Positions 237-6,443 are shown, numbered from the stretch's first letter. The stretch: 64,000 bases of DNA from Candidatus Poribacteria bacterium (GCA_964291315.2 OZ219753.1:2560001-2624000); one strand, 5' to 3'. Program-made: numbers and translations. Notes: generated by a model not told the origin, from the letters alone.

Positions 237-869
237 CTAATTGTCTGCGGGGACTAAACCTGCTTTGACAAGAGATGCAACGACTACTTGTGCGGCTTCT
301 TCAATAGAGAGTTCTTCTGTATTTACCGTGACTTCAGGGTCGGCCGGCGGTTCGTAAGGTGCACTAATACCTGTAAACTCTTTAATCTCTCCAGCTCGCG
401 CTTTTTTGTATAAACCTTTCGTGTCACGTTCTTCACAGATTTTAAGTGGACAGGCAACGAAAACTTCGACAAATCTACCTTCTGCAACGAGTGCTCTTGC
501 CTTATCTCTATCGGCGCGATAGGGCGAAATGAAAGCTGTCATAACGATAGTACCAGCGTCTGTAAAGAGTTTTGCCACTTCGCCGATACGCCGGATGTTT
601 TCCTCACGATCCTCGGGCGAGAAGCCTAAGTTCTTGTTCAATCCGTGCCGGACGTTGTCGCCATCTAAAACGTATGTATGGTGGTGCTGTTGGTGCAATA
701 TGTGTTCGACCGCATTTGCCAAAGTCGACTTACCAGAACCTGAAAGCCCAGTGAACCAGACTACACAACCGCTCTGATTCAGTAATTTTTCTCTATCTTC
801 TGCCGTGACAGTTGCTTTATGCCACGTTATATTAGTTGCTTTCCGTTGAGCCAATTGACTATTCCTCAC
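237..869 (-). CDS. cysC: Adenylyl-sulfate kinase (true start possibly TTG at 854)
   Basis: [13 protein letters not shown]-loop, [15 protein letters not shown] and FTGISAPYE motifs. Confidence 0.95.
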
Positions 870-2949: not shown

Positions 2950-3654
2950 TTAGAAAAGGTTTTTCAGTGATCCCCAGGTAGTTGTGAGTCTATTTTGTGC
3001 TTCAACCGCGGTCTGCGGGTCGGTTTCATTCGGATCGAATGCCACATCGGTTGTCGCGAAGATTTTATCAACATATGTGCCGTCTTCGCGGTGCGCGATA
3101 TAGAAGGTATGGTCCCCATCAGATAACGCCACAGGAACGGGATCGTCGCCGTGCTGGGTCATTTCAAGTCCCTCAAACGGACCGTCGCGTGTATTCAACC
3201 GGAACCAGACCCAATCGGTTGTATAGTTAACGCGGAGTTCTTCTGCTTCAAAGAAATCCCAGATATTCATGGTGGCGTTATTGGTAGAGGCGATATCACC
3301 GTCTGCGGCATCGAGCGCCCAGTAAAGGGAATTATCACTGACTGAGGGAGCAATAATGCGCCCCCAGAAATGCCAATCGTCTGCTGCGACTGAAAATTCA
3401 TATTTTACCCAGTCACCACCGTCGTTAGTAGCTCCATTATGTGAACCGATGTAGGCCCCACCGGATGCTTCTGTGACGGTGTAATCCTCTACACCTTCAG
3501 CAGCGTTACCTGGATGCTCATTTGGAGCTTCAAATATCTCAAATTTCGTACCGTTTGAATCGTTAAAGTTTTCTGCTTCCCAACTGATGTATTTCTGGGC
3601 AAATGCGGGAAGCGCGATAAGGCTTAAAGCTGTTAGTAGAATGAGAGTTCGCAT
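2950..3654 (-). CDS. Secreted acidic protein, possibly a carbohydrate-binding-like fold, with C-terminal AVxxxxxLTTTWGxLK motif
   Basis: AAGGAGG RBS, signal peptide ending ALPAFA, WEAE start of mature region, C-terminus AVEAQNRLTTTWGSLKNLF. Confidence 0.75.
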   Translation of the reverse strand: MRTLILLTALSLIALPAFAQKYISWEAENFNDSNGTKFEIFEAPNEHPGNAAEGVEDYTVTEASGGAYIGSHNGATNDGGDWVKYEFSVAADDWHFWGRIIAPSVSDNSLYWALDAADGDIASTNNATMNIWDFFEAEELRVNYTTDWVWFRLNTRDGPFEGLEMTQHGDDPVPVALSDGDHTFYIAHREDGTYVDKIFATTDVAFDPNETDPQTAVEAQNRLTTTWGSLKNLF

Positions 3655-3768
3655 TAACAAACCTCCTTAGAAAAGTGGATTAAAGTTATTGTAGCACAAT
3701 TATAAAGAGAAGCACTACTTTTTATTTGTCGGTTTCTCGTCTAGACTATTTACTGCGTTATGCTATTT

Positions 3769-4051: not shown

Positions 4052-5239
4052 TTAGTCGGCCGCTGGTGCGAAAACTTCCGGATTCTCCGCAGCGGCATCG
4101 TAATCGTCGATCAGTTTTGTAATGATAGGGGTATCGCCGCAGATCGGGCAATTTTCATCTCGGTTGATTTTCATCTCGCGATAGGTCATTCCGAGTGCTT
4201 CATAGAGAATGAGCCTGCCGATGAGGGGTGCACCGATACCGAGAATATATTTAATCGCTTCGGTTGCCATCATGACACCTATTATGCCTGGGAGCACGCC
4301 CAGAACTCCGGCCTCGCTTCAGCTCGGCACTAGGCCTGGGGGTGGCGGGGTCGGATACATGCATCGATAGCAAGGACCATCGTGTGGTTTAAAGAGCGAG
4401 ACCTGCCCTTCAAACTGGAAAATACTACCGTGGACGATTGGTTTACCCAATAGTACAGCTGCGTCATTGACGAGATAACGGGTGGCGAAATTATCACACC
4501 CGTCCACAATTATGTCATATTCTGAGAAAATTTCTTCAACATTATCGGCAGCTAGACGCAGGTTATACGGAGTGATGTCAATGTCTGGGTTCAACGACTT
4601 AATGGTTGTTGTCGCGGATTGTACCTTCGGTGTGCCGACGGCTTCTGTACGGTGGAGTATCTGACGTTGGAGGTTACTTAACTCCACAACATCAGAATCG
4701 ATAATACCGAGATGGCCGATACCTGCGGCCCCGAGATACACGCCTGCTGGTGATCCCAAGCCTCCTGCACCAACCAGCAGGACGTTAGCATCAAGGAGTT
4801 TGGCTTGTCCGTGTTCGCCGACTTCTGTGAGCATAAAATGCCGGCTGTAACGGTCGAGCTGATCGTGTGTCATCGGTTTGTCTTGTGCAGTCGGGAACCC
4901 GGCGCTCATCCAGTCCCGATAGCCGCCTGCAAGAGAGACGGTATCAGTGTATCCCATTTGGCGGAGGGATTTGGCAGCGAGTAGAGAACGGAGCCCCGCT
5001 GCGCAGTATACAACGACCTTTTGGTCTCGATCAGGAATATAATTTTCGATAGAGAACTCAAGCATGCCACGTGTGACATGCACAGCATTCGGGATATAAC
5101 CGGCGCGATATTCATCTTCATCGCGAACATCCAGCAGTACGAAATCGTTCTCTTCGTCTTGTTCGGTTTTCACTTCAGCAACAGTTACTTCCGGTATTTC
5201 TGCTTTCGCTTCCTCAACGATTTGCCTGTAGGATTTCAT
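4052..5239 (-). CDS. moeB: Rhodanese-MoeB/ThiF fusion (sulfur-carrier adenylyltransferase) with in-frame TGA at 4319-4321, probably selenocysteine
   Basis: N-terminal rhodanese (LDVR...YCAAGLRS); RYSRH, GAGGLGS, SNLQRQ and CYRC motifs; reads VPS-TGA-SEAGVLGVLPG in frame to a second Zn motif CPIC; AGGAG RBS before ATG 5239. Confidence 0.88.
4288..4303 (-). promoter_or_regulatory. Candidate bacterial SECIS hairpin
   Basis: Coding strand CTGGG-CGTGCT-CCCAG; loop starts 20 nt after the UGA, with G then U at loop positions 2-3. Confidence 0.55.
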
Positions 5240-5328
5240 AAAATTTTTCTCCTGCGAAGAAGAAATATGAAAATTAAGGATCTCATATTCTCTCATTCTA
5301 TGGATTTTAGGTCTTTTGCACTTACAGA

Positions 5329-5567: not shown

Positions 5568-6443
5568 ATGTTCAACACAAACCCTTTTCAACAACCCGGA
5601 CAGTGGTATCGCGGGAATACACATAGCCACAGCACTGAGTCCGATGGACAACTCTCAATATCAGATCGTTTTGCTGCGTATAGGGACGCAGGTTACGATT
5701 TTCTCGTGTTGACTGATCACCGCAAGGTTAACGAAGTGCAGGCTTACACGACATCGGATTTTTTGGCAATATCAGGGAGCGAAGTTCATCCTGAAAATCC
5801 TTACGGTGGTGGGACATATCACATCGTTGCGATTAATATACATGAACAGCTAAACTGCGCGAACATGCACCCGAATGCAGTAATCGATCAGATTAAAATG
5901 CAAGGTGGTGAAGCCGTTTTGTGTCATCCTTATTGGTGTGGGCATACAATTTTAGATTATCTGCCGTTGCGCGGTTATTTTGCTGTTGAGGTTTATAACG
6001 ACACATGCATGGGCATCGGTAAAGGGTTTTCGGAGCAGGCATGGGACGATCTTCTAGATAGAGGTGGTCCTGTCTTCGGCATCGCCGCCGATGATGCCCA
6101 CGGCACAAAGCACGACTGCTTCCACGGCTGGATTATGGTCAAAGCGCAAGAACTCGCGCTCGGTAGCATCATGGAATCACTCCGGACCGGCGCTTTCTAT
6201 TCTACACTTGGGCCCGAGATTAAGGATATGAACTTAGATGGAAATCAATTGACTGTTAAATGTTCGGCGGCACGATCAATTGTTTTTAAAGCAGAGTGCA
6301 GTCGTGGAAAACGAATCTTGCCATTCGATGGCGAGCTCTTAACTGAGGCAACCTACAGTATTCCGGAGAACGTCAAATACGTTCGCGTCGAGATAACTGA
6401 CGAAACCGGTAAGAAAGCATGGTCAAACCCACTCTTTTTTTAG
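5568..6443 (+). CDS. PHP-domain metallohydrolase (CehA/McbA-like)
   Basis: GNTHSHSTESDG, LTDH, CHPYW, ADDAH and AWSNP motifs. Confidence 0.85.
   Translation: MFNTNPFQQPGQWYRGNTHSHSTESDGQLSISDRFAAYRDAGYDFLVLTDHRKVNEVQAYTTSDFLAISGSEVHPENPYGGGTYHIVAINIHEQLNCANMHPNAVIDQIKMQGGEAVLCHPYWCGHTILDYLPLRGYFAVEVYNDTCMGIGKGFSEQAWDDLLDRGGPVFGIAADDAHGTKHDCFHGWIMVKAQELALGSIMESLRTGAFYSTLGPEIKDMNLDGNQLTVKCSAARSIVFKAECSRGKRILPFDGELLTEATYSIPENVKYVRVEITDETGKKAWSNPLFF

Follow-up and report, generated by a model that had tools for sequence, protein, structure and literature searches.

A predicted selenocysteine-containing rhodanese-MoeB/ThiF fusion protein in Candidatus Poribacteria

Introduction

Does an in-frame TGA within a ThiF/MoeB-type gene of a sponge-symbiont genome end translation, or is it decoded as selenocysteine (Sec)? 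The question is raised by a stretch of 64,000 nucleotides from a Candidatus Poribacteria bacterium (GCA_964291315.2 OZ219753.1:2560001-2624000), referred to here as the window, which carries at 4052..5239 on its minus strand a gene that is called as two separate ORFs. The original prediction, made from the sequence alone, read these ORFs as a single rhodanese-MoeB fusion with UGA at the position of a conserved active-site Cys, and stated that Sec-containing MoeB had been predicted in marine metagenomes. That statement was correct. Sec-MoeB was first reported among the new selenoprotein families of the Sargasso Sea data, represented by 11 sequences and with Cys homologues that are widespread (PMC1088965; Zhang, Fomenko & Gladyshev 2005), and the 2008 study of Global Ocean Sampling (GOS) data gives 19 Sec-MoeB sequences vs 2,262 Cys homologues (PMC2398784). 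Sec-MoeB also appears in the tables of reviews from 2022 and 2026, where it is placed under PF00899 with '-' in the motif column (PMC9312934, PMC13188914). A literature search on selenoproteins of Poribacteria found one paper, on hydrogenases, and a search on ThiF-rhodanese selenoproteins returned the 2022 review alone. No word starting with 'selen' occurs in a review of the chemistry of ThiF-like enzymes from 2025 (PMC12596934).

Results

A single reading frame encodes a rhodanese-ThiF/MoeB fusion

Read on the minus strand, the complete coding sequence (5239..4052) is a single 395-codon frame closed by a TAA at 4052-4054, and its sole internal stop is a TGA at codon 307 (4319..4321). Translation table 11 splits this frame into an ORF of 325 aa that begins at an upstream ATG (4319..5296, minus) and one of 81 aa (4052..4297, minus), which starts at a GTG at 4297 and lies in the same frame as the first. 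Direct reading of the sequence places a ribosome-binding-like AGGAG (5249..5253, minus) 9 nt ahead of the ATG at 5239. The bases quoted in the original prediction around the interruption (GTG CCG AGC TGA AGC GAG GCC GGA GTT CTG GGC GTG CTC CCA) are exact on the minus strand, and its statement that the two called ORFs share a frame holds.

The fusion that it proposed is borne out by matches to PF00581, PF00899 and NF006444. The rhodanese domain comprises residues 20-112 (4904..5182, minus; PF00581, E 2.9e-20, 73 bits against a cut-off of 22.2) and possesses an active-site Cys, Cys79 (5003-5005), within the six-residue loop CAAGLR (4988..5005, minus). It is followed by a ThiF/MoeB adenylation domain at residues 131-365 (4145..4849, minus; PF00899, E 3.8e-84, 282 bits against a cut-off of 28.1) that covers profile positions 1-237 of 238. 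Within this domain are the glycine-rich nucleotide-binding motif GAGGLG (residues 157-162; 4754..4771, minus), a first zinc motif CYRC (residues 290-293; 4361..4372, minus) and a second zinc motif CPIC (residues 364-367; 4139..4150, minus), all three of which align with their counterparts in E. coli MoeB, where the first is likewise CYRC. Residues 5-383 match NCBIfam NF006444, which models MoeB together with an N-terminal rhodanese domain, at 535.1 bits (cut-off 449). MoeZ models match the ThiF part only (394 bits, below their cut-offs of 633 and 647), and the rhodanese domain is N-terminal here rather than C-terminal as in the MoeZ/Uba4/MOCS3 architecture.

CYRC lies upstream of the TGA, and both the ATEAIK helix (residues 325-330) and CPIC lie 3' of it, as originally claimed; CPIC is produced only upon read-through. 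Since the helix and the second zinc motif are located past the TGA, an intact fold needs read-through. Were the TGA a true stop, the product would be a rhodanese-ThiF protein of 306 residues without the second zinc motif, possibly joined by a separate 81-residue piece, for which the same-frame GTG at 4297 offers a start. Such a stop would, however, break the chain inside the ThiF fold, between its two zinc motifs.

Alignment to the solved structures of E. coli ThiF (1zfn/1zud), E. coli MoeB (1jw9) and C. thermophilum Uba4 placed residue 307 at Cys187 of MoeB, at chain index 186 of ThiF (Cys184, with an offset of two residues) and at chain index 200 of Uba4. The UGA thus occupies the position of the conserved active-site Cys of the crossover loop, which is where the original prediction had put it.

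The TGA is conserved across the order and replaces a cysteine

One hundred and seventy six genomes of the phylum were searched, 159 inside the window genome's own order, Candidatus Poribacteria, and 17 outside it. A full-length match with exactly one TGA was found in 153 of the 159 genomes of the order, at 59-93 % identity. The other six show only a shorter paralogue, and all are drafts of 20 to 760 contigs. No full-length match at E 1e-100 or better was found in the 17 genomes from outside the order. In a set of close relatives, 59 of 61 order genomes hold the full-length match with one TGA, at 59-92 % identity, the remaining two being draft assemblies. The TGA column is identical in all 59 copies read, one per genome (VP[S/G]-U-[S/N]-EAGVLGVLPG), and the 88 codons downstream are conserved, with alignments extending to residues 380-395.

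A lone in-frame stop in a conserved enzyme gene resembles a fresh nonsense mutation, and the locus could on that ground be a pseudogene, or the TGA an error of sequencing or assembly in the window genome. However, this is already refuted by the recurrence of the same TGA, both within the order (153/159 genomes) and in many further phyla, and the downstream codons are conserved. Moreover, assemblies and contigs alike carry the TGA; contigs from a second sequencing run (X2) are identical to the window across 4052-4661, although their best-matching holder may be the source sample. No other decay was seen, NF006444 being matched along the whole length of the protein. We consider a pseudogene or an error to be vanishingly unlikely.

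The alternation of Sec and Cys at a catalytic cysteine is the usual hallmark of a selenoprotein, and here an in-frame UGA does stand where homologues carry Cys. Alongside the fusion, the same genomes encode a shorter paralogue (about 270 residues) that has no rhodanese domain and carries Cys at this column in 41/41 cases (40 from related genomes plus the window genome's own). Among 7 out-of-phylum loci, 6 have Cys at the column; full-length relatives from Myxococcota, Binatia and Thermodesulfobacteriota, at 55-58 % identity, carry Cys, and one from Nitrospinota has TGA. The comparison of TGA with TGY codons among relatives that the original prediction had proposed gives TGA for the fusion gene in 153 of 159 genomes of the order, and Cys in the paralogues and in these relatives from other phyla, the Nitrospinota one excepted.

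The window genome's own Cys paralogue, of 268 aa and with a ThiF domain only (L322:6011-6817 (-) = G000:C4:224010-224816), is separated by two small unassigned ORFs (192 and 100 aa) from an 814-aa sulfite/nitrite-reductase-TusA fusion (L322:8158-10602). This locus may be a sulfur-carrier-based sulfur assimilation cluster.

Full-length sequences with Cys make up 86 of the best 120 database proteins; another 33 stop exactly at the TGA, at 306-307 residues, and the remaining one is a regular-expression artefact. One of the TGA-terminated products is named 'ThiF family adenylyltransferase' by NCBI. Ordinary annotation does, then, mis-call the gene, as was anticipated. These 33 entries are precisely the product expected of a true stop and might be counted in favour of one. 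Against this, the stop is TGA and never TAA or TAG in 59/59 copies, it is again TGA in 78 loci from other phyla (see below), and the codon is Cys in every Cys-form relative.

The genome encodes the selenocysteine machinery

A search for selA, selB, selC (tRNA-Sec) and selD, as the original prediction had suggested, found all four in the genome, each above its curated cut-off (SelA 514.9 bits, SelB 328.8 bits, tRNA-Sec 78.1 bits, SelD 357.3 bits). SelA is present in 164/176 genomes of the phylum. The tRNA-Sec gene (G000:C2:61509-61598, minus) directly adjoins selB (C2:61643-63538, minus). The SelD gene (G000:C4:721940-722863, minus) itself has one in-frame TGA and so probably encodes a selenoprotein too.

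The presence of this machinery is a further point against a true stop. It also bears on whether the UGA is read through by a near-cognate or suppressor tRNA (Cys, Trp or Gly) instead of tRNA-Sec, which would likewise result in a full-length protein but for which there is no specific support. TGA terminates 237 of the 1159 open frames of at least 400 codons in the genome, hence the codon is not reassigned. Suppression would, moreover, leave the dedicated set of SelA, SelB, SelD and tRNA-Sec beside the point, and it sits poorly with Sec/Cys alternation at the catalytic cysteine.

Synonymous sites are frozen downstream of the TGA

The bacterial SECIS consensus is a stem-loop that closely follows the UGA and carries G/U in its apical loop. 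A SECIS-like hairpin, UCUGGG[CGUGCU]CCCAGG, is found at 4287..4304 (minus), 18-35 bases from the U of the UGA, with G25 and U26 in its loop. Across the 55 distinct sequences from 59 genomes, the bases CTG GGC GTG CTC CC 3' of the TGA are invariant, third positions included. Codon entropy in the 55 Sec sequences is 0 bit at codons 7-9 after the TGA and 0.23-0.76 bit at codons 6, 10 and 11. The 41 Cys paralogues, whose peptide is nearly identical here, have 1.4-2.3 bit at the same codons, and flanking four-fold codons of the Sec forms themselves still vary (1.4-1.9 bit). The consensus hairpin has 6 bp, (C/U)CUGGG[CGUGCU]CCC(A/G)GG, and 98.3 % of cells pair; the only substitutions, U for C facing G and G for A facing U, are both compatible with wobble pairing. 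No compensatory double change was found at any of the six pairs within the order, the pairs being invariant or changed on one side.

Single-sequence folding was dropped as evidence for a SECIS element. The energy of the window RNA is like that of shuffled sequences (z -0.01 and -0.18), and its minimum-energy fold is a different small hairpin that is not conserved. An Rfam search of 4150-4450 with E up to 10 returned only two chance matches. Hairpin length was rejected as a discriminator between Sec and Cys forms, many Cys forms pairing at the same place; with two registers allowed, Cys paralogues pair over 5-11 bp in 20/40 cases and Cys orthologues over 8 bp in 3/6. Since length fails to separate the two, the RNA argument rests on the synonymous freeze.

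The codons for LG(V/A)LPG are self-complementary (CUGGG / CCNGG), both at window 4287-4304 and at the equivalent place in Cys forms (L075, L082-L121, L195-L201). Conservation of the peptide LG..PG accounts for part of the hairpin potential here. This self-complementarity may have eased repeated switches from Cys to Sec. In other phyla a stem is found at the same place with another sequence and length, such as the 8-bp stem of Nitrospinota, and Latescibacterota stems have 9-11 bp with the register shifted by one base.

A true stop would assign the hairpin to termination, coupling or regulation; its unremarkable folding energy is a point for a true stop. Set against the break in the fold, the exclusive use of TGA, the Cys counterparts and the Sec machinery, we judge a true stop to be very unlikely. 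Read-through by another tRNA has in addition to face the fact that synonymous sites are frozen exactly where SelB would need an RNA element, and we regard it as highly improbable. Decoding as Sec is the reading that we carry forward.

Contigs assembled from a sponge metatranscriptome (run X7), from relatives of 85-95 % similarity, cover the TGA site; an RNA library can contain DNA, and the contigs give no level of expression.

Homologues with the same TGA occur in at least ten other phyla

A species-genome collection was scanned with the degenerate pattern TGA-x-E-[A/G]-G-V-x-G-x-L-P-G, and at least 120 stretches matched. MoeB homologues whose TGA falls in the column described above account for 78 of the 80 matches listed; an alphaproteobacterial MAG and Kribbella supplied one chance match each. 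These homologues come from at least ten phyla besides Poribacteria. Among the matches listed, the hosts include Rokubacteria/Methylomirabilota, Verrucomicrobiota, Planctomycetota, Actinomycetota MAGs, Chloroflexota, SAR324, Tectomicrobia/Entotheonella, Latescibacterota, Nitrospinota and an Acidobacteria MAG. Two Sec-bearing architectures are seen, rhodanese-ThiF and, in SAR324 and Verrucomicrobiota, ThiF-rhodanese like MoeZ/Uba4.

The rhodanese loop CxxGxR is kept in 46 of the 56 N-terminal-type Sec forms of other loci among the matches listed. The ten that are without it are L208:1164-2339 (+), L226, L230, L262, L264 (Latescibacterota), L249, L271, L224, L272 and L280, where L271 is an Akkermansiaceae ORF with a long upstream extension and L224, L272 and L280 are from Planctomycetota. 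In L208 the rhodanese active-site Cys is replaced (…VYGAQGQG…) and both the Sec codon and the hairpin are retained. Retention of Sec is therefore independent of a rhodanese cysteine in cis.

In a quick maximum-likelihood tree of 72 rows (8 Sec rows of fewer than 330 residues having been removed, and then 96 of 168 rows as more than 88 % identical), the Poribacteria Sec forms cluster together. The tree implies a minimum of five switches between Sec and Cys, of which well-supported branches force three, but this count is only indicative because the Sec rows had been selected for the TGA pattern and the Cys rows for their similarity to the query.

Genomic context

The gene stands by itself. It is followed on its strand by a small zinc-ribbon ORF, a secreted protein, an FG-GAP protein and an APS kinase; divergently upstream are an ORF without a family match, a heptosyltransferase, a HAD hydrolase, LexA, a peroxiredoxin-like ORF and PBP1. 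The first divergent ORF (291 aa, window 5568-6443 (+)) matches no Pfam family at E-values up to 0.01. The APS kinase gene (window 237-869 (-), PF01583, 245 bits), which belongs to sulfur metabolism, lies about 3 kb downstream on the same strand, with three unrelated ORFs between it and the Sec-MoeB gene.

Five ThiS-family ORFs are present in the genome, all of them distant from the gene, and no sulfur-carrier gene was found beside it. Two ThiS/MoaD-family ORFs are located just 3' of a molybdenum enzyme of the xanthine-dehydrogenase/aldehyde-oxidase type (L323:1137-3392, 3478-3759, 5737-6024; G000:C4:3178000-3187000). Clustering of the ORFs around the 78 loci revealed no neighbour common to more than one phylum, the three commonest neighbour clusters being a sugar epimerase, a trypsin-like protease and a sugar dehydratase. 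With no adjacent carrier gene and no neighbour shared across phyla, context gives no pointer to a pathway, be it molybdenum cofactor, thiamin, cysteine, thiolated tRNA or another.

Discussion

The predicted protein and its possible chemistry

Taken together, these data point to one predicted selenoprotein of 395 residues, in which a rhodanese domain is joined to a ThiF/MoeB-type domain that would activate a sulfur-carrier protein, and very probably the UGA at codon 307 is decoded as Sec by SelB and tRNA-Sec, with the likely aid of the short hairpin that lies 17 to 34 nt downstream. On the sequence evidence, the in-frame TGA almost certainly encodes Sec at the catalytic loop.

The part that Sec307 may play in catalysis is inferred by analogy with Uba4 and ThiF. 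In Uba4, the crossover-loop Cys (C202 of C. thermophilum, in a loop at 194-205; C225 of yeast) forms a thioester with Urm1, after which the rhodanese C397, which carries a persulfide, takes over (PMC7527816, PMC6007339). The crossover-loop Cys184 of ThiF forms an acyl disulfide with ThiS, according to a review (PMC12596934). By extension, the ThiF domain would adenylate the C-terminal glycine of a ThiS/MoaD-like carrier, and Sec307 in the flexible crossover loop would then attack the acyl-adenylate, or exchange with an acyl-persulfide, giving an acyl-selenoester or a selenosulfide. The persulfide of the rhodanese Cys79 would supply the sulfur, and the carrier would be released as a thiocarboxylate. 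Selenium at the loop residue might offer a stronger nucleophile, a better leaving group and less irreversible over-oxidation. The original prediction suggested that a mixed S/Se relay may operate. A strict relay from Cys79 to Sec307 is a poor fit to the Latescibacterota Sec forms, in which the rhodanese Cys is replaced. Cys187 of E. coli MoeB is, moreover, dispensable in vitro, and so the residue is not essential in every member of the family.

A broader proposal can be made tentatively, as a conjecture that is more apt to fail than to hold. The protein may represent an E1-like enzyme working through an acyl-selenoester or selenosulfide, a trait with several gains or losses among fusions of either type, rhodanese N-terminal or C-terminal, by way of an LGVLPG-codon hairpin that can be recruited as a SECIS element; in Latescibacterota without the rhodanese Cys, Sec itself may accept the sulfur (an Se-S relay). 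We know of no description of an acyl-selenoester intermediate for any E1 or ThiF-like enzyme.

Significance

The Poribacteria gene belongs to the already catalogued Sec-MoeB selenoprotein family, and because that family has been catalogued since 2005 no new kind of system is opened. What is added is conservation throughout an order, the mapping of Sec to the crossover-loop Cys, an RNA constraint controlled by paralogues, and the recognition that public gene calls are truncated. Public protein sets hold a fragment of 306 residues that lacks the second zinc motif, with the consequence that metabolic reconstructions of these sponge symbionts misread the gene. The role of the crossover-loop residue in the plain E. 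coli enzymes is debated. The retention of the predicted Sec at this loop, order-wide and across phyla, argues that the residue is catalytically important in bacterial rhodanese-fused MoeB/ThiF proteins. The natural Sec/Cys pair, with the Cys paralogue in the same cell, is well suited to testing the role of the loop residue.

Comparison with known systems

The published Sec-MoeB family is the closest precedent. Like its members, the window protein is a MoeB/ThiF homologue (COG0476, PF00899) whose gene is interrupted in frame by TGA, followed by a potential stem-loop, and which has many Cys homologues. The published family is from uncultured marine bacteria, and the text passages compared here give no Sec position, motif, architecture or taxon and do not name Poribacteria.

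E. coli ThiF and MoeB have the same fold by sequence (E 1e-55 to 1e-56), with both zinc motifs and the aligned Cys184/Cys187, but they are without a rhodanese domain and have Cys instead of Sec. Uba4/MOCS3 shares the combination of adenylation and rhodanese domains in one chain, and the thioester Cys of Uba4 aligns with the Sec codon. However, Uba4/MOCS3 is eukaryotic and has Cys in the loop, whereas in the bacterial protein described here the rhodanese domain is N-terminal and the loop residue is predicted to be Sec. MoeZ (NF005902) likewise differs in its C-terminal rhodanese domain, its models matching only the ThiF part. The architecture is that of NF006444 (PRK08762), the 'MoeB' with an N-terminal rhodanese domain, to which the match is full length; the members of this family from Binatia, Myxococcota and Thermodesulfobacteriota, 55-58 % identical to the window protein, carry Cys, not Sec, at the loop.
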